Below, piece after piece: positions 265 to 14,424 of a stretch of DNA of 42,822 nucleotides. A model generated the notes under the pieces. It was not told the origin of the DNA, searched no databases, and saw only the letters and a program-made list of their open reading frames with translations. Made by a program: the position numbers and the translations under genes. Every line of letters begins with the position of its first letter. The first letter of the stretch is position 1. The DNA comes from a phage: NCBI GenBank assembly GCA_018167975.1, contig GCA_018167975.1_4333.1. The stretch is one strand, 5' to 3'.

Positions 265-750
265 TCATTTAACAGCCCTCCCGATAGCCTCCGCCTCCTG
301 CCACGGTTTACCGTCGAACAGCGCCAGACGGCCAGCTGTACGGCGGCGCAGGCCAAGTAACGGTTTGCCGTTCTGGTTGATGAACAGCGCCAGCTTAGCC
401 CGCAGCGTCGTGGTATCGCCAGAACGCAGCGCCTTACCCGTGCCTGTAGTAGCTGCAATCACACCAGCACCTGCGTTGTAGACCAGGTCGCAAATTGCGT
501 CAAACTGTGCCTGTGTTAATGAATGGTGGGCTGCTGCATCAACCGCAGCTACGGCCTTAGCCATATCACGATTCAGTAACAGGAGGCCCTGACCGGGTGT
601 GATGGTCTTGCCTGGCGTTACGTCAGGCCCGTAGTGCCCGTAACCGATAGTCAGGTACTTCTCATTCGGCGTAGCGCGGTACGCGGTTCCGCGGAACCCC
701 TCAAACGCAGCGGTGAAATGCAGTCCATTATCTGAAATGTTTCGAGACAC
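265..750 (-). CDS. Endolysin, GH24 (T4/lambda-type) lysozyme
   Basis: ORF 265..801; translation contains FEGFRGTAY...TIGYGH...LNRD, typical of phage lysozymes; probable GTG start at 750 preceded by GGAGG (rc of 759-763); alternative TTG at 801. Confidence 0.8.
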   Translation of the reverse strand: MSRNISDNGLHFTAAFEGFRGTAYRATPNEKYLTIGYGHYGPDVTPGKTITPGQGLLLLNRDMAKAVAAVDAAAHHSLTQAQFDAICDLVYNAGAGVIAATTGTGKALRSGDTTTLRAKLALFINQNGKPLLGLRRRTAGRLALFDGKPWQEAEAIGRAVK

Positions 751-1000
751 GCTTATGTCCTCCGTACGATAACCACGCCTGGCGAATCTGGCGTAGCGCA
801 ACTAATGTGATTAATGTCTCGGGCAGTGTTGGTGACATGCTGCCCTGTAACAGGTGGATGCATCCGGCAGCGCAGACGATAGCGGTCAGGATATAGAGCA
901 CCCGGCCAAATAATCCGTCGTCCACGCTGGGGTGGTATACATTAAAAAGCGATGTGCCCCCGATTGCCAGCATACCGCCGAACCAGAATAACTCATTCAT
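728..1000 (-). CDS. Holin/antiholin-like small membrane protein (2 predicted TM helices)
   Basis: Internal ATG at 998-1000 with GGAGG RBS 5 nt upstream; hydrophobic stretches FWFGGMLAIGGTSLF and VLYILTAIVCAAGCIHLL; located between the other holin-like gene and the endolysin, overlapping both. Confidence 0.55.
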   Translation of the reverse strand: MNELFWFGGMLAIGGTSLFNVYHPSVDDGLFGRVLYILTAIVCAAGCIHLLQGSMSPTLPETLITLVALRQIRQAWLSYGGHKRVSKHFR

Positions 1001-1301
1001 CTGTGCCTCCTCGACGTGCGATGTATTCTCCGGCGACGATACCAGAGAGACGGGAATAGATAGGCATCCAGAGAATAGCGATAATGAAGCCGAGGCCAGC
1101 GATTTCACGGTCGCCCGTGATTCCAAACCATTGAGCGGCAAGAGGTGCGCCAAATACAGCGCAAGTGAAGCCAGTTGCGATAAAGCAGAATCCGTCGATA
1201 GGGCCGGAAATAGCGGACTTATGTTGCCTTAGCCCGATTACCCCTCCGGCTAGCGCGGCAGCGAGAAGCCAGCCTGTCACTGTTTCAGTAAATTTATCCA
1301 A
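993..1301 (-). CDS. Holin-like membrane protein (3 predicted TM helices)
   Basis: TTG start at 1301 with GGAGG RBS 7 nt upstream; three hydrophobic segments (WLLAAALAGGVIGL, GFCFIATGFTCAVFGAPLAA, IAGLGFIIAILWMPIY); first gene of the lysis cassette. Confidence 0.55.
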   Translation of the reverse strand: MDKFTETVTGWLLAAALAGGVIGLRQHKSAISGPIDGFCFIATGFTCAVFGAPLAAQWFGITGDREIAGLGFIIAILWMPIYSRLSGIVAGEYIARRGGTDE

Positions 1302-1360: not shown

Positions 1361-1801
1361 TTATCCTAATAGTTGTTTGGTAATAATCTTGCCACCGGTG
1401 TTAGTGTCGAACTTCGAGGCAACAGCTACGCCACCATGTGCCGAATACCCGCATTCCATAGCCGCTAATGCATAAGGAGAACCGGAACCAACGGCGGCAA
1501 AGCTATCGGCAACTGGAATAACCGAACTAAGTGCACAATCCCATGATTTATAAAATGCGACTTTATACACCTTTTCTGTGTCTTTCACGAACACCAGGGC
1601 TTCGAAATCGAAGTCGTAGTGCTGTGGCCAAAGAATATCGGGACGATCGATAAGCATAGTCCCTACCCCAGCATCACCAGCCACCCCGATAACGGCAAAA
1701 TTATTCTCATATATCTTTGTGTCTGTGTTGTAACAGTTGCTCCCGCACACAACACGGGTGTCACAAGCCATTGTCTTTCCGTCAAACGCGATAGTAGTCA
1801 T
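1361..1801 (-). CDS. HslV-like Ntn-hydrolase (proteasome-type threonine peptidase homolog)
   Basis: N-terminus MTTIAF (Thr directly after Met, as in HslV MTTIVSV) and AVGSGSPYALAA matching the HslV GSGGPYAQAA signature; GGAG RBS 8 nt upstream of the ATG at 1801. Confidence 0.55.
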   Translation of the reverse strand: MTTIAFDGKTMACDTRVVCGSNCYNTDTKIYENNFAVIGVAGDAGVGTMLIDRPDILWPQHYDFDFEALVFVKDTEKVYKVAFYKSWDCALSSVIPVADSFAAVGSGSPYALAAMECGYSAHGGVAVASKFDTNTGGKIITKQLLG

Positions 1802-2090
1802 TTATGTCTCCAGATGTATTGTCGTCTCTGCGGTTTCGTCGGAATATCTTCATACCCAGCGATTTCCAGTAATTAAATAACCGATTAGCAATAGCCGCCC
1901 GTTCCTTTGTCTTGAACTCGCCGAGGTTCACGGCCTTCCCGTTCTGGAATCCACAGGCGCGGACAGCCTTGCGTCTGGCCTGAATCTCGGTGTACAGCGC
2001 ATTACGGCGGCGCTTGTATATCTGTGTTTTAGCTCTCGGCGACAGCGGCGCAAGGCCGCTTCGTTTCAGGATGTCAGTTGCAAGAGTCAT
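1782..2090 (-). CDS. Hypothetical basic protein
   Basis: ATG at 2088-2090 with GGGGTGA RBS; Arg/Lys-rich 102-aa product; no recognisable motif. Confidence 0.5.
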   Translation of the reverse strand: MTLATDILKRSGLAPLSPRAKTQIYKRRRNALYTEIQARRKAVRACGFQNGKAVNLGEFKTKERAAIANRLFNYWKSLGMKIFRRNRRDDNTSGDINDYYRV

Positions 2091-4859: not shown

Positions 4860-5195
4860 GAGAATAGTTACGTTGCCGTTGTGATTCTTTCGTGTAATAG
4901 GATAGCGAGCGAAACGAAACGAACGTGGTGCCGAAGGCACCAAGAGTGAGTGAGTGAGCTTGCGAATCAATAACTTATATCATGTGGTAAAATTTAAATA
5001 GACGGGGGCTTTCTTGCGACTTGCTGTTACTTTGAGGAAACTTAGATACTAACGTTGTCGAAGTGACTCTCAGCGCCCGTCCTTCATTGGCCGGGCTTTG
5101 GTCACCAGAGACTTAATAATAATGTTTCTAAGTAATTCTAAACTAAAGTCCTTCGATACGTTGATTTTACAGCTACATTTTATTTTGTCAACAGG

Positions 5196-5224
5196 TTGTG
5201 TTTAGCTATCGTGGGTGTTATAGT
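5196..5224 (+). promoter_or_regulatory. Candidate early rightward promoter: -35 TTGTGT, 17-bp spacer, -10 TATAGT
   Basis: TATAGT at 5219-5224 (the -10 hexamer shared by the plus-strand promoters at 8656, 10943 and 15053); weak -35; 30 nt upstream of the HTH gene start. Confidence 0.35.
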
Positions 5225-5253
5225 TGTTTCACTTGATAAAGAGGGCGCGTAAA

Positions 5254-5433
5254 ATGACACAGAAAGAAGTAGCAGACTTAATAGGGGTATCTCCTATGAC
5301 GCTTAATCGCTGGTTACGGTCTGGTAAGTTCCCGGAGTGTTGCCGGGTTATTAATGGCTACCGGCAGCCCGGTACTTTTGACCGCGCTACTGTGGAGGAG
5401 TGGATTAAGGAGAACGTGAAAGATGTTAACTAA
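5254..5433 (+). CDS. Small helix-turn-helix DNA-binding protein (AlpA/Xis/MerR-like HTH)
   Basis: MTQKEVADLIGVSPMTLNRWLRSGKFP is a classic HTH segment; ATG at 5254 with GAGGG RBS; first gene of the rightward early operon. Confidence 0.55.
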   Translation: MTQKEVADLIGVSPMTLNRWLRSGKFPECCRVINGYRQPGTFDRATVEEWIKENVKDVN

Positions 5434-5756: not shown

Positions 5757-8027
5757 ATGTCCGATGTAATTTTATCCTACTCGTGGTCTCGTCGCAACGC
5801 GCGGGCAGAGAAAAAGGATATAAACGTCAGAACAACACACACGGCAACACTGGACAACCTGAAAGAGTTAATCCAGCCGCTCGATGCCGTTCGTGACGGA
5901 ATTAACCCGAAGACCGCGCCGGGCTATATCACTGCCGCGTGCGATTCTACGCACAGCACCGTAAAAGACCCGGAAACCGGTGACTTTAAGCAAGCGCGTA
6001 AAGGCTTCTTCTATCGCTGTGATGCGTCTGTAAGCAAATCGTCGCTGGCGTACCTGGACTTCGACAGTGCAACGCCGGAAGAGTATCAGGAAGCGGTGCG
6101 CCTGGTTAAGCGCAGCCGCCGGGCGATGTGCCTCTACACCACGGCATCTCATACCGATGAGTCTCCACGCTTTCGCGTCGTCATGCCACTGGGCCGTCCT
6201 GTTGAAGGTGGTGACATCATCCGCATTCGTCATGGATTGCTGGAGCACTTCTTCGAAGGCATGGGTGCTGACCGCAGCGGGTTCACTCTGTCCCAGCCGA
6301 TGTACCTGCCGCCGGTTGGCTCTCAGGTTATCTGGTCGCGTCGCAATGACCTGATTGACCCGGACGAGTTACTGGAAGGCATCCCGGATTACGAGGTGAG
6401 CAGCGCGTCTGACTACCAGATACCGGAAGAACTGCGCACCTCGTTCACGGATGCGTTCGAAGCACTGGCGTTCGAGTACGGTGGCATCATGACGCCGCGT
6501 GGCCTTAAGATACCAGCTACGCCAGAACACGCAGAGAACTACAGCGACCCGACCCCGCGCCCGGACGACTTCCTGCTGTGTTTCCCGCGCGAGGGGTATG
6601 AAGCGCCGAACGTAACCATGATTCACGACACCGACATTACGGCAACAGAAGGCATGTCACCGAAAGAGGTGTGGAAGTATGCGTGTGATGCGACCGGTCT
6701 GCCGTTCAGTGAGGTCGCTGAGGCTATTGGCTGGGGCGCACGTGAATCTATTTCATGCAGTCTCGATGACCTGGAGGACGACGAGGACTCAGAGGTGGAC
6801 GAGTTACCTGAACCGGTAAAGGCTGATTTCGTCGTCGAGGGGTACATGCCGTCAGATTGTATCTGGGATATCGTCGGGGAATCCGGCACGTACAAATCAT
6901 TCTATACGCTGGGGATGATGTACCTTAGCGCCGCCGGATACCGGTTCGCGGGGGCCGATACCCAGCGTTGCCACCATTTCTATGTCGACGGTGAGGGTGG
7001 CGCTGCTACACGTACCCGTATTGATGCGCTCGCGGCTAAATATGGCGAGGAAGGTAAAGATTATGTACATGTCATTGATATGGGCGAAGTCGGAAAACTG
7101 AAAAACCTGATTAAGCTAATGCGCGAAACTGCGGGCGATGAACCAATCGGCATGGTTGCGTTCGACACCCTTAACCAGACGCTGGCCCTGACGATTGATA
7201 AGTTCGACGAGAACAGTTCATCAACGGCAATCGGTATGGGTAAAGTTATCGCCATCCTGAAAGAAGTACGCGACGCGACTAAAGCCGCGGTAGGCGTTGT
7301 GCACCACACACCGAAAGGCGGAAAGAAAGCCCGAGGTAGCGGCGCTCTGTATGCAGGCGTAGACGTTGAACTGACAATTGAACGTGCCACCGAACGTCAG
7401 ATAAACGTATACCACTCTAAATTTAAGCACGGGCCTCAACAGAAAACGGTTGGCATGGTGTTGGAGTCAGTACAGTTCCGCGAAGCCCCGCCACCGAAAG
7501 AGTACCGCGCGGTTGAGTTCCTCGGTAGCACAGAGGAATACGGCACAATCGTAAACCTCGACCTGCCGGAACCGCACAAGGCGCTTGTGCTGATGCCGTG
7601 GGGCTTCGAACCGTTCAAAACTGACGAGGAGAAAGAGCGGGAAGAAGGGCTGACAAAGGAAGGTAAAGCGGCCATTAAAGAAAAGGTAGGTCAGTTCGAG
7701 AAACTTGATACCAAAGAAGCTACGGTTATTTACGCATTGGGTAAATTGCAGGAGCAGGGTGACGACAAGCGAGGGTTTTCTATGTCAGCTATCGTCAAAG
7801 CCGCGAAAGAAGATAGTTACGGCGTACCAATTAACGCTAATAACGACCTTCGAAAGAAACTGGAAGAGATGCACGAGGCTGGGGTTATCGTCTCGGGTCT
7901 GGATAACAACAACAGACCTATCCCTAAGCAGTACCGGTTGCCGTGGGGTATAAACGACAACAAAATACCGAAGACAATATACGAACCGAATGAGATGTTA
8001 ACAGTGACAGAGGAGGATTTGGAATGA
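5757..8027 (+). CDS. Replication primase-helicase (primase-like N-terminal domain fused to a RecA-like/AAA_25 ATPase domain)
   Basis: 756 aa; N-terminal region with LAYLDFD...CLYTTASHTDESPRFRVVMPLG (prim-pol-like); C-terminal region with GESGTYKS (P-loop-like), VAFDTLNQ and VVHHTPKGG segments typical of RepA/DnaB-type RecA folds; GAAGGAAA RBS. Confidence 0.6.
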   Translation: MSDVILSYSWSRRNARAEKKDINVRTTHTATLDNLKELIQPLDAVRDGINPKTAPGYITAACDSTHSTVKDPETGDFKQARKGFFYRCDASVSKSSLAYLDFDSATPEEYQEAVRLVKRSRRAMCLYTTASHTDESPRFRVVMPLGRPVEGGDIIRIRHGLLEHFFEGMGADRSGFTLSQPMYLPPVGSQVIWSRRNDLIDPDELLEGIPDYEVSSASDYQIPEELRTSFTDAFEALAFEYGGIMTPRGLKIPATPEHAENYSDPTPRPDDFLLCFPREGYEAPNVTMIHDTDITATEGMSPKEVWKYACDATGLPFSEVAEAIGWGARESISCSLDDLEDDEDSEVDELPEPVKADFVVEGYMPSDCIWDIVGESGTYKSFYTLGMMYLSAAGYRFAGADTQRCHHFYVDGEGGAATRTRIDALAAKYGEEGKDYVHVIDMGEVGKLKNLIKLMRETAGDEPIGMVAFDTLNQTLALTIDKFDENSSSTAIGMGKVIAILKEVRDATKAAVGVVHHTPKGGKKARGSGALYAGVDVELTIERATERQINVYHSKFKHGPQQKTVGMVLESVQFREAPPPKEYRAVEFLGSTEEYGTIVNLDLPEPHKALVLMPWGFEPFKTDEEKEREEGLTKEGKAAIKEKVGQFEKLDTKEATVIYALGKLQEQGDDKRGFSMSAIVKAAKEDSYGVPINANNDLRKKLEEMHEAGVIVSGLDNNNRPIPKQYRLPWGINDNKIPKTIYEPNEMLTVTEEDLE

Positions 8028-8338
8028 ATATCTACGATTTTATAGATAACCCGTTTAAGGCAGTGAAGGCAGGATACCGCCCGTCATACCTGACATGTGT
8101 TTCCGCGGTAAGCGGCCACTGGTGGACTTTTTGGGTTTACACGGCGGGGATTTTTGCGGAGTTTAAAGACATTTTAGATATGACGCTGGCGGAGATTATA
8201 AAGTGCCTTTTCAAGTTGATTATCGCGATAGCTATTGTAATAAGTTTTCCTGTAAGTGTGTGGTTTCTGGCCTGGATTCAGTACCTGAACGTGCAACACA
8301 CGGTTAAGAATTTGGAAGAACTCGATAAGTTGAAATAA
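8024..8338 (+). CDS. Hypothetical membrane protein
   Basis: ATGA overlap with the primase-helicase stop; hydrophobic segments HWWTFWVYTAGIFA and LIIAIAIVISFPVSVWFLAWI. Confidence 0.5.
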   Translation: MNIYDFIDNPFKAVKAGYRPSYLTCVSAVSGHWWTFWVYTAGIFAEFKDILDMTLAEIIKCLFKLIIAIAIVISFPVSVWFLAWIQYLNVQHTVKNLEELDKLK

Positions 8339-8362
8339 AAAGAAAGGGGCGTTAAGCCCCTT
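8333..8362. terminator. Bidirectional hairpin terminator between convergent genes
   Basis: Stem AGGGGC (8345-8350) / GCCCCT (8356-8361), loop GTTAA; A-rich tract upstream on the plus strand gives a U-tract for the minus-strand (Cro-like gene) transcript. Confidence 0.5.
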
Positions 8363-8567
8363 CACCGAACGCCAGCCACTTGGCGTCTACTTCCAGCACT
8401 TCCGCCAGTTTAAACAGCGTCGCCGGGCGGACGTCCTGAGTTACTCCAAGTGCCAGCTGGTTAATTACGCCCTGGGAAACGCCAGCCAGGACAGCAAGAC
8501 GGCGCTGGGAGATGCCGAGTTCTTTACGACGTTGTTCTACACGGATGCCTAGTTCAGATGGTTGCAT
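8352..8567 (-). CDS. Cro/CI-type (XRE-family) HTH transcriptional regulator
   Basis: 71 aa; ELGISQRRLAVLAGVSQGVINQL is a canonical XRE HTH; AAGGAG RBS; divergently transcribed from the rightward early promoter at 8632-8661. Confidence 0.7.
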   Translation of the reverse strand: MQPSELGIRVEQRRKELGISQRRLAVLAGVSQGVINQLALGVTQDVRPATLFKLAEVLEVDAKWLAFGEGA

Positions 8568-11687: not shown

Positions 11688-12161
11688 ATGGAACATATAA
11701 AAGATTTTCTTAGCTATAACCGAGAAACCGGAATATTCACATGGATACAACCTACGTACAGACGAGGGAAACCTGGAGACATTGCGGGATGCATTAATAG
11801 TAGCGGATACTGGCGCATACCTTATATGGGTAGATATTACATGGCCCACAGGCTTGCTTGGTTTTTCGAGTACGGTGAATGGCCTGAGGGGCCGCTTGAC
11901 CACATAAACCGTGACAGGTTAGACAATAGGATTTCTAACCTAAGGAAAGCAACCACCGCAGATAATGTGCGAAACGCTAAAAATAAGGGAGCTAGAACGG
12001 GAGTTAAGGGAGTAGTTAAAACCGGCAACCGATTTTATGGGCGGGTACATTTTAACTACAAAAGTTATAATGCGGGTAGCTACGGAACTCTTGAAGAAGC
12101 AGAAAGCGCTGTAAAGAAATTAAGAGAAAAACTGCATAAGGAATTTTATTGCCATGACTAG
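11688..12161 (+). CDS. HNH homing endonuclease (HNH_3 catalytic motif plus AP2-like DNA-binding domain)
   Basis: ORF 11664..12161; ATG at 11688 with GGAG RBS; AHRLAWFFEYGEWPEGPLDHINRDRLDNRISNLR (HNH) and GVKGVVKTGNRFYGRV...GTLEEAESA (AP2-like). Confidence 0.75.
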   Translation: MEHIKDFLSYNRETGIFTWIQPTYRRGKPGDIAGCINSSGYWRIPYMGRYYMAHRLAWFFEYGEWPEGPLDHINRDRLDNRISNLRKATTADNVRNAKNKGARTGVKGVVKTGNRFYGRVHFNYKSYNAGSYGTLEEAESAVKKLREKLHKEFYCHD

Positions 12162-14424
12162 TTTATTATACCTGGATACCGAGACATTCTCCGAAGCAGA
12201 CTTAAAGAAAGTCGGGTCGTATGCGTATGCGGAGCACCCAACGACAGAGGTTATAATTTGTACATATGCCGTTGATGACGGCCCTGTAGAAGTATGGGAT
12301 TGCACTTCCGAACCAGTAATGCCAATAAGCCTCCGCGTAGCGCTCCGTAATGTTATGCGTGGACGTATGAAAATCGTGGGCCATAACTTTTTAATGTTCG
12401 ATCGTCTAATCCTGAAACACTGCTGGGACTTTGATATCCCGGTAAGCAACACCATTGATACGATGATTTGGGCGTTTCGTCACGCGCTGCCAGGGTCACT
12501 TGATGCGCTGTGTGAAGTGCTTGGCGTGTCCGCTGATAATGCGAAAGACAAACGCGGCAAGGCGCTGATTCAGCGTTTCTCTAAACCGACACCGAAGAAC
12601 TATAAAATCCGCCGCTACACCGCCGAAACGCACCCGGACGAATGGGCGCTGTTCATCAAGTACGCCGTGAGCGACATCACAGCGATGCGTGAAGTCTTCC
12701 ATAAGCTGCCACGTTGGGGTAACTCCGATTTCGAGGACCGTGTACTTGAACTTGACCAGTTAATCAACGACCGAGGCTTTTTTGTTGATGCAGCTCTTGC
12801 TGAGGCAGCGGTAGCGGCAGTTGAACGCCACAAGCAAGAGCTAAAAAACGAGGCCCGCGCGAAATTCGGGGGGAAACTAACGGGCAAAGACTTCCTGCCA
12901 ATCCTTCGGGAGCTGGCACCGGCCTACAATATCTATAATGCGCAGAAAGCGACGCTCGAAGGTTTGTTAGAGGACGACGACTTGCCCGACGATGCGCGTA
13001 CAATCATTGAGATGCGCCTCGGCGCGGCCTCCACGGCGTCAACAAAATATAAGCCGCTCCTGTTAGGACGGTCCAAAGACGGACGACGCCGTGGTTGCAT
13101 CCAGTATGGCGGCGCGAAGCGCACTTTACGGTTTGCGGGTAAAGGGTTCCAGCCGCAGAACCTGTCGCGCGGGTACTACCACGACGACCCGACTAACGAG
13201 GAAAAGAAACTTGTACGCCAGCCGTGGGAGTCCGACGAAGACTGGAACCGCAGGCTTAACCCGCTATCATTTGGCATCAATTTGCTTTTAAAGGGTCGGG
13301 CGCATCGCCGTTTCGATGTATCTAAGCTGACAGCTTCAACTGTTCGCAGCTGCATCATCCCTGAAAAGGGTAATAAGTTGCTCGTTGCCGACTACTCAAA
13401 CGTGGAAGGGCGCGGGTTGGCCTGGGCCGCCGGGGAGACATCCGCGCTTGAGACCTTCCGAGCAGGGATTGATATCTATTGCGCCACCGCGGGCAAGATG
13501 TTTGGCATGGACCCCGTAGAGCTAAAAGCCACCCGTAAGGACCTACGTCAGGTCGGGAAATGTTGCGAACTCGGCCTCGGCTACGAGGGGGGCGTAGGGG
13601 CCTTTATGACTATGGCTAAAACTTACGGGCTGGACCTCTTTAAAATGACGGAGACAATGCGGGGCACGTTCCCTGATCACATTTGGGCGGCTACTGCCAG
13701 GGGCTATGAATGGGCGCGGATTCAGGAGGCTAAGAGACCCCCGAAACCCGGTAAAAAGGATGAACGGGCCTCTTATGTGCTGCCTAAAGAAGTCTGGCGC
13801 ACCTGCGATGCTATCAAGCGCATGTGGCGTGAGGCCCATCCAGAAACAGTGAAATTCTGGAACGACCTTAAGGATTCGGTAATTGCCGCAATCAGAAATC
13901 CGGGACGAGAGTTTTGGGCGGGGGCCAGAGTCCGCCTTAACGGCGACAGAGCTATTCGCATCTGGCGTACTAAAGAGAAAGATAGTCAGGGTAGATTTGT
14001 GCCGGGTTGGTGGTTGTGTGTAGAACTGCCGTCAGGGCGCGTCATGTCGTACCCCGGCATAGGTCTGAGCGTTACTAAAGAAACTGACGAGGATGGGCGC
14101 GTAACAACTAACGTTCGCATTAAGTACCAGGGCGAAAACCAGACCACCCGCCAGTGGACAACTTTGTACACACACGGCGGAAAATTGTGTGAAAACATCA
14201 TCCAGGCGTTGTGCCGTGATTTACTGGTTAACGGACTCCTGACGGTCGAGGCGGCGGGCTACCCAATTGTACTCCACGTACATGACGAATGTGTTGCCGA
14301 AACGCCAGACACGCCAGAGTACACGGTTAAAGAGATGGGTGACCTGCTATGCTCATTACCCGAATGGGCCGAAGGGTTCCCGTTAACATGGGCTGGGGAA
14401 GAGGTGTACCGTTATGCTAAGTAA
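12154..14424 (+). CDS. DNA polymerase, family A (Pol I-like) with 3'-5' exonuclease domain
   Basis: 756 aa; exo motifs YLDTETFS, HNFLMFD, YAVSDITAM; polymerase motifs DYSNVEGRGLAW (A), RKDLRQVGKCCELGLGYEGG (B), VLHVHDECV (C). Confidence 0.85.
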   Translation: MTSLLYLDTETFSEADLKKVGSYAYAEHPTTEVIICTYAVDDGPVEVWDCTSEPVMPISLRVALRNVMRGRMKIVGHNFLMFDRLILKHCWDFDIPVSNTIDTMIWAFRHALPGSLDALCEVLGVSADNAKDKRGKALIQRFSKPTPKNYKIRRYTAETHPDEWALFIKYAVSDITAMREVFHKLPRWGNSDFEDRVLELDQLINDRGFFVDAALAEAAVAAVERHKQELKNEARAKFGGKLTGKDFLPILRELAPAYNIYNAQKATLEGLLEDDDLPDDARTIIEMRLGAASTASTKYKPLLLGRSKDGRRRGCIQYGGAKRTLRFAGKGFQPQNLSRGYYHDDPTNEEKKLVRQPWESDEDWNRRLNPLSFGINLLLKGRAHRRFDVSKLTASTVRSCIIPEKGNKLLVADYSNVEGRGLAWAAGETSALETFRAGIDIYCATAGKMFGMDPVELKATRKDLRQVGKCCELGLGYEGGVGAFMTMAKTYGLDLFKMTETMRGTFPDHIWAATARGYEWARIQEAKRPPKPGKKDERASYVLPKEVWRTCDAIKRMWREAHPETVKFWNDLKDSVIAAIRNPGREFWAGARVRLNGDRAIRIWRTKEKDSQGRFVPGWWLCVELPSGRVMSYPGIGLSVTKETDEDGRVTTNVRIKYQGENQTTRQWTTLYTHGGKLCENIIQALCRDLLVNGLLTVEAAGYPIVLHVHDECVAETPDTPEYTVKEMGDLLCSLPEWAEGFPLTWAGEEVYRYAK

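Follow-up and report, generated by a model that had tools for sequence, protein, structure and literature searches.

The gene described here occupies positions 1361..1801 (minus strand) and encodes a 146-residue N-terminal-threonine peptidase of the PPH (proteasome/HslV-like) family, as identified from the ORF, PHROG 1040, hhalign, an AF2 model and Foldseek. The 42,822-nucleotide stretch of DNA that was analysed, here called the window, is a near-complete Kagunavirus-like (Guernseyvirinae) siphophage genome. Among its 20 larger ORFs, Pfam detects an AAA_25 helicase-primase, a PD-(D/E)XK nuclease, a family A polymerase, an SNF2 helicase and terminase, together with tailspike, tape measure, tail tube, MuF and portal proteins. 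The 6-kb region is matched by 374 phage records, mainly of Escherichia and Salmonella phages. The genome is of the lytic type and sits inside the assembly of an E. coli isolate, while the nearest phage record is named for another genus: the closest phage protein (99.3% aa identity) comes from a record named Klebsiella phage vB_kpnM_D1. An identical protein is on record as HBC7939229.1, ‘TPA: hypothetical protein [Escherichia coli]’.

The product reads MTTIAFDGKTMACDT...AVGSGSPYALAA...KQLLG (in a longer listing, MTTIAFDGKTMACDTRVV...AVGSGSPYALAAMECGYS...KQLLG), and the length of only 146 aa given in the preliminary description is that of the minus-strand ORF. A Shine-Dalgarno sequence, GGAG (1808..1811, minus strand), is located 6 nt upstream of the ATG (1799-1801), as read from the sequence. 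Upstream, a 102-aa ORF with no assigned function (phrog_9632; 1782..2090, minus strand) overlaps the start of the peptidase gene with its 3' end by 20 nt; this ORF is kept in phage K1G. Four public gene calls of the family (P0409, P0413, P0415 and P0417, 98 aa) begin at the internal Met49 and thereby drop the catalytic Thr, Asp and Lys, which would make the peptidase look inactive. The probable cause of these miscalls is the overlap of the true start with the upstream ORF. The 98-aa cluster members were considered as pseudogenes and rejected as such, the full 146-codon ORF being intact in locus L006 (8001-8441).

Downstream, the first gene of the lysis cassette, a holin (phrog_2359; 993..1301, minus strand), follows the peptidase gene after about 59-60 nt, and no terminator-like site is found between the peptidase gene and this holin. 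A second holin (phrog_2508; 728..1000) and the endolysin (phrog_33703 / phrog_7; 265..750) lie on the same minus strand; the start of the former is an internal Met, and both starts are set as in annotated relatives. The lysis cassette thus adjoins the peptidase gene, as first described. A promoter-like sequence on the minus strand (TTGACA-16-TAAAAT, 11/12; 5164..5191) heads the block of small leftward genes whose last members are the peptidase and lysis genes; it is a consensus match alone, and such sites are no more numerous than in shuffled sequence. Judging from this arrangement, the peptidase gene probably shares a transcript with the leftward small genes and the lysis cassette. Weaker promoter-like matches on the plus strand (5185-5212 and 5228-5255) make 5164-5255 a divergent promoter-like region between the leftward small genes and the rightward HTH and helicase-primase genes. 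Elsewhere on the plus strand, an HNH endonuclease ORF (PF13392; 11664-12161) overlaps the start of the family A DNA polymerase gene (12154-14424) by 8 nt, a placement typical of a free-standing homing endonuclease next to a replication gene.

Fold and active site

The protein has the proteasome-beta/HslV-type Ntn fold, and its first description as an HslV-like threonine peptidase is upheld by PHROG, profile, hhalign and structural comparisons. The single sequence matches PHROG 1040, ‘peptidase HslV family’, with E=4.1e-34. With Pfam PF00227 (Proteasome) it scores 20.9 bits against a gathering cut-off of 22.4; several family members carry a precomputed PF00227 match. Searched exhaustively with HMMER (E<=1e-3), 1.84 billion representatives yield at least 150, and up to 1,453, homologous clusters at 50% identity, and the best 150 of the 1,453 are nearly all 135-160 aa long and align from residue 1. 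Against the PDB, the family profile (105 sequences) gives similar E-values for HslV (2e-11), archaeal 20S beta (1e-10) and BPH (2e-10). Profile A2 (124 sequences) aligns with E. coli HslV over 133 columns in hhalign (prob 97.3%, E=2e-11). The AF2 model, built on 124 diverse homologues, is of high confidence (pLDDT 92.1, pTM 0.87). Foldseek matches it to BPH (5OVT/5OVS), HslV (6KUI, 1M4Y) and 20S beta with TM 0.70-0.75, prob 1.00, E~2e-7 and about 20-22% identity; BPH is the best match, and Foldseek returns no solved structure closer than these three. Given the E-values of the PHROG 1040, PDB-profile, hhalign and Foldseek comparisons, the match to HslV is far beyond chance.

The two HslV-like motifs named in the preliminary description are both present and lie in register with those of HslV in HMMER and hhalign. 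The product begins MTTIAF, where E. coli HslV begins (V/M)TTIVSV, and AVGSGSPYALAA resembles the GSGGPYAQAA signature, which is IGSGGPYAQAA in E. coli HslV. Conservation was counted over some 100-150 representatives, which are only 30-40% identical to the query. M1 (97%) and T2 (98%) are nearly invariant, and the MTT start is kept in 120 of 146 family representatives. T2 (codon 1796..1798, minus strand, as for all codons below) aligns with Thr1 of E. coli HslV and is the predicted nucleophile; it would become Thr1 once the initiator Met is removed. Asp14 (1760..1762; 98-100%) aligns with Asp17 in the A-G-D17 of HslV, and Lys29 (1715..1717; 100%, invariant in A1 and A2) aligns with Lys33. The oxyanion-hole glycine region, G39-V-A-G42 (1676..1687; G42 99%), is in hhalign register with HslV G45-F-A-G48. 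The GSG signature, G105-S106-G107 (1481..1489; 100/93/100%), aligns with HslV GSGG, contains the equivalent of Ser129 and is followed by PYALAA. Asp132 and Thr135 in the segment FDTNTGG (1397..1408) are conserved at 95% and, as T/S, at 88%. From their position in the fold we infer that they are the equivalents of proteasome Asp166 and Ser169; the profile alignment with 20S beta5 extends to profile position 142.

The active-site Thr1, Lys and Ser/Gly residues for which an HslV alignment had been proposed as a check are therefore all kept, and so is the Asp; similarity to Ntn hydrolases is present in the profile searches, and no loss of the catalytic Lys or Asp is seen. The peptidase core is under purifying selection (pairwise dN/dS 0.09 among 12 Kagunavirus alleles; 0.09-0.17 across the gene). 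With a near-invariant catalytic set and this dN/dS, the protein looks like an active peptidase rather than a relic. An intact site is no guarantee of general peptidase activity, since BPH is inert on standard peptides and casein despite its intact active site (PMC5777263).

Elements lost from HslV and relation to known families

In the hhalign alignment, about 30 residues of HslV are gapped: the last part of H1, H2 as a whole and the pore loop, which carries R86, R89 and K90. The connection between H3 and H4 is also shorter than in HslV; both helices themselves are kept in the AF2 model. Between S4 and S5, DSSP assigns the model a single helix of 6 residues (46-51). Residues 48-61 (1619..1660, minus strand) form the stub of H1 and the loop that replaces the H1 end, H2 and the pore loop, and they are the most variable block among Kagunavirus alleles. 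Among close alleles their entropy reaches 1.4-2.2 bits, while core positions have about 0.3; the hairpin of residues 16-26 is also one of the most variable parts. Two blocks are mosaic among the Kagunavirus alleles, residues 48-61 (1619-1660) and residues 116-131 (1409-1456), with, for example, the alleles MLIDRPDILWPQHY / LLVKDDSILVPKHY / MLIRDNGVLNPKSY and AAMECGYSAHGGVAVASKFD / AAMYLGHTATRAITVASQFD. In these blocks dS is 1.9-2.3, compared with 0.57 in the remainder of the gene, and dN is raised too, a pattern indicative of recombination among old alleles. As dS rises to the same extent as dN (dN/dS 0.17 versus 0.09), positive selection was rejected for the hypervariable loop.

By its descriptive features, the gene product is a member of the already known PPH family, described in 2021 with WP_042125023.1 as its representative (Fuchs et al., PMC8665760), and is no new kind of protein. 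As published, PPH proteins are phage-borne, have about 140 residues, lack a propeptide and H2, and carry Thr1, Asp17, Lys33 and Gly47 (PMC8665760). The protein described here has the same Ntn beta-sandwich core (S1-S11; AF2, Foldseek) and the equivalent residues T2, D14, K29 and G42; it has no propeptide, Thr follows directly after Met, H2 is absent, and the length is 146 aa. Both have a compact group-I fold nearest to BPH and HslV and belong to tailed phages or prophages of Proteobacteria, here a Kagunavirus-like genome. The assignment rests on these descriptive features and the PHROG 1040 name. No difference from PPH is essential: in the Guernseyvirinae alleles, H1 is cut to 6 residues, and the W-x3-G...P motif that is common elsewhere in the family is absent. 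In the literature searched, there is no experimental work on phage HslV-like or PPH proteins, which appear only in the 2021 bioinformatic paper and in passing annotation mentions.

The protein shares with HslV the fold, the MTTI N-terminus exposed by removal of Met and the GSG-x-PYA-x-AA motif. It is, however, 30 residues shorter, lacks the H1 end, H2 and the basic pore loop (R86/R89/K90), and has no HslU adjacent to it or encoded in the phage genome. A true HslV orthologue was rejected on the scores of the equivalog models (14.7 versus 157.75 bits for TIGR03692 and 13.9 versus 137 bits for NF003964) and on the deletion of H2 and the pore loop. BPH (5OVS/5OVT) is likewise a stand-alone descendant of HslV with an intact active site and without unfoldase or propeptide. 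In contrast to the phage protein, BPH is a tetradecamer of subunits of about 185-200 residues, in which H1 and H2 are kept and the pore loop is long and acidic (PMC5777263); its gene is chromosomal and linked to stress, not phage-borne. With 146 aa and neither H2 nor a pore loop, the phage protein falls outside BPH. Connectase is likewise a proteasome homologue in which parts of the first helix pair are missing (PMC8665760). It differs in being a larger, monomeric protein of archaea that works as a sequence-specific ligase, and it is absent from the top 50 Foldseek matches of the AF2 model.

Distribution and gene context

The preliminary description considered a stand-alone peptidase beside the lysis cassette unusual. 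This does not hold: 302 phage records contain the gene, 258 of them from Salmonella and 30 from Escherichia phages. Many already carry one of the labels ‘peptidase HslV family’, ‘HslV family peptidase’, ‘protease’ and ‘ATP-dependent protease’, the last of which is misleading. In BFVD, the same fold is found in 42 phage proteins (E<=1e-3), and IMG/VR gives 335 confirmed homologue matches. Some BFVD matches are proteins of about double length with a PPH-like domain: A0A1W6DWU9 has 263 aa and 53% identity over 131 columns, and A0A5B9NBU4, A0A2I7R6C7 and A0A6G5YGZ5 have 275-279 aa.

In the Kagunavirus K1G, the segment corresponding to 1372-1799 of the window is replaced by about 7 bp, with the flanking holin and phrog_9632 genes conserved. 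About 30 Escherichia-phage records contain the gene, compared with 104 that match the surrounding region. This clean deletion and these counts show that the peptidase is a dispensable accessory gene in Kagunavirus and not a core function.

The neighbourhood of the gene was compared across 79 IMG/VR loci in 24 lineages (<55% identity) by BLAST clustering and a PHROG scan of the two neighbours on either side. No gene family occurs within ±2 genes in more than 2 of the 24 lineages, and there is no ATPase neighbour beside the homologues in any of the 79 loci. Within 6 kb, only generic modules recur (portal, MuF, terminase, endolysin). The homologues are located beside endolysins, among early genes, near integrases or in head/connector modules; the homologue travels alone, as a single gene. 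The PADLOC defence-system models give no match at E<=1.

The homologue of some uncultured phages is placed within the virion module. In L076 (862-1275) it has a MuF-like head-morphogenesis gene on one side and the genes for the scaffold and the major head protein on the other, the classical slot of a prohead protease. In L050 and L054 (both 8001-8414), which have scaffold, major-head and adaptor gene families in common with L076, its neighbours are the head-tail adaptor Ad1 and the head closure protein Hc1. That the positions differ suggests that a mobile gene was inserted; in these three phages the homologue may have a head-related role. One 42,035-bp viral contig (IMGVR_UViG_3300047469_000099) carries two differing PPH copies near its ends (L025:3560-3958 and L029:8001-8405), distinguished most visibly by an indel in the loop after H1. 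They could be paralogues of one phage, possibly forming a hetero-oligomer, or an assembly or concatemer artefact. A homologue of about 134-139 aa with 33-39% identity is also present on large chromosomal contigs of about 20 Acetobacteraceae genomes (Roseomonas, Falsiroseomonas, Muricoccus, Pseudoroseomonas; genome-contig loci L087-L110, match at 6001-~6402). Naive ORF calling in this high-GC DNA gives no interpretable conserved context for these homologues. PPH may be a resident bacterial gene in Acetobacteraceae; resident PPH genes are described for Pseudoalteromonas and Mesorhizobium (Fuchs et al. 2021, PMC8665760).

Proposed mechanism and alternatives

We propose that the protein is a catalytically competent, minimal (~140-residue) Ntn hydrolase of the PPH family that stands alone and acts by the classical proteasome mechanism, a reading to which we give a probability of roughly two in three. 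Activity of Gram-negative HslV needs removal of fMet (PMC7468587); by analogy, the host methionine aminopeptidase would remove Met1 and leave Thr2 as the N-terminal nucleophile. Lys29 and Asp14 would complete the triad, the backbone of G39xAG42 would form the oxyanion hole, and Ser106 of the GSG signature, Asp132 and Thr135 would brace the active site. Such a full catalytic set would allow peptide-bond hydrolysis by the classical proteasome mechanism. The enzyme would probably assemble into a homo-oligomeric ring like HslV or BPH, and during infection it would act on peptides, on unfolded proteins or on one specific protein of the host or the phage. As to its presumed co-transcription and timing, it would be expressed during infection as part of the leftward transcription unit that has the lysis genes at its end, and it would give a conditional fitness benefit.

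The ATPase question was examined in the window itself. No Clp/HslU-type AAA+ protein is found among the 20 larger ORFs, in which the only ATPase domains are those of the RecA-type AAA_25 helicase-primase, the SNF2 helicase and terminase, and tblastn with E. coli HslU against the window gives no match (best E=1.7). The preliminary description was thus right that the window encodes no HslU-like ATPase, and because the window is a nearly complete genome, the same is true for essentially the whole phage. The lack of a propeptide and of a phage unfoldase, together with the loss of H2, most of H1 and the basic pore loop, makes action without an ATPase most likely.

The peptidase could instead dock on the HslU hexamer of the host, either as a hybrid ATP-dependent protease with new specificity or as a decoy that titrates HslU. 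In the latter case, HslU would be drawn away from host HslV, and particular proteins would be stabilised or destabilised in infection. The homology with HslV, with the same MTTI N-terminus and the GSG..PYA..AA motif, the absence of an ATPase encoded by the phage and the known hosts, mostly Proteobacteria and including E. coli, which carries hslVU, all agree with such docking. The genome scan for homologues, which finds almost only Proteobacteria and a few MAG contigs, says nothing on HslU dependence. Against such docking, the H1 end, H2 and the pore loop of HslV are deleted, and it is the R86/R89/K90 loop that changes on HslU binding (PMC5777263). The segment that replaces them and the hairpin of residues 16-26 are the most variable parts of the protein, whereas HslU of E. 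coli would be a near-constant partner. The HslV equivalog score (14.7 bits against a cut-off of 157.75) also speaks against it, and in the stand-alone BPH the residues of the HslU interface are not conserved and HslU is not pulled down (PMC5777263). The missing or variable apical and pore regions and the example of BPH argue against canonical HslU docking, and we regard use of the host HslU, as partner or as titrated target, as unlikely.

The loss of H1 and H2 could also reflect loss of ring assembly, leaving a monomeric, sequence-specific protease or transpeptidase that, in the manner of connectase, would cut or ligate a single defined protein of the host or the phage. Connectase, the other proteasome homologue without the first helix pair, is monomeric and highly specific (PMC8665760, PMC7980362); PPH lacks H2, H1 is a 6-residue stub in this phage, and some of the new homologues look incompatible with stacked rings according to the authors who described them (PMC8665760). 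However, H3 and H4 are retained in the AF2 model, Foldseek places BPH and HslV first and connectase outside its top 50, and no conserved neighbouring gene offers itself as the substrate. A connectase-like monomer is accordingly improbable in our judgement.

The protein might instead be an Ntn amidohydrolase whose substrate is not a protein, or it might be inactive and serve as a structural component or decoy; this would be in line with the non-peptidase amidases of the Ntn superfamily and with the inertness of BPH in standard assays. The proteasome-specific catalytic residues are nearly invariant at 30-40% identity, the gene is under purifying selection, and the nearest structural relatives in Foldseek are all peptidases; this reading is very improbable. 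A head-maturation (prohead) or other virion-assembly protease, to which the L076 slot, the L050/L054 positions between adaptor and head-closure genes and the lack of a recognisable prohead protease among the large ORFs of the window might point, is scarcely credible, because the gene lies outside the structural module in this phage and its position within one type of head module varies between L076 and L050/L054, as for an inserted accessory gene. For this phage and genus, a role in prohead or capsid maturation was rejected, since K1G has the same virion genes and no peptidase gene.

The stand-alone PPH peptidase can be taken one step further, to a speculative and rather doubtful model. In this model, it would be an ATPase-independent phage effector protease, moving as a mobile single-gene cassette and cleaving a specific host protein, with the mosaic segment setting substrate entry or specificity; in a variant, it would plug into host HslU.

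The window adds no new kind of element; it leads back to a named family that annotation pipelines already label. PPH is the only branch of the proteasome family that is mainly viral. This phage group is a tractable system: its hosts are E. coli and Salmonella, the gene is naturally present in some members and cleanly deleted in K1G, and the 146-aa protein could be modelled with confidence. If the effector model is true, the target would be, for example, a proteostasis, stress-response or defence factor, and the HslU variant would redirect ATP-dependent proteolysis.
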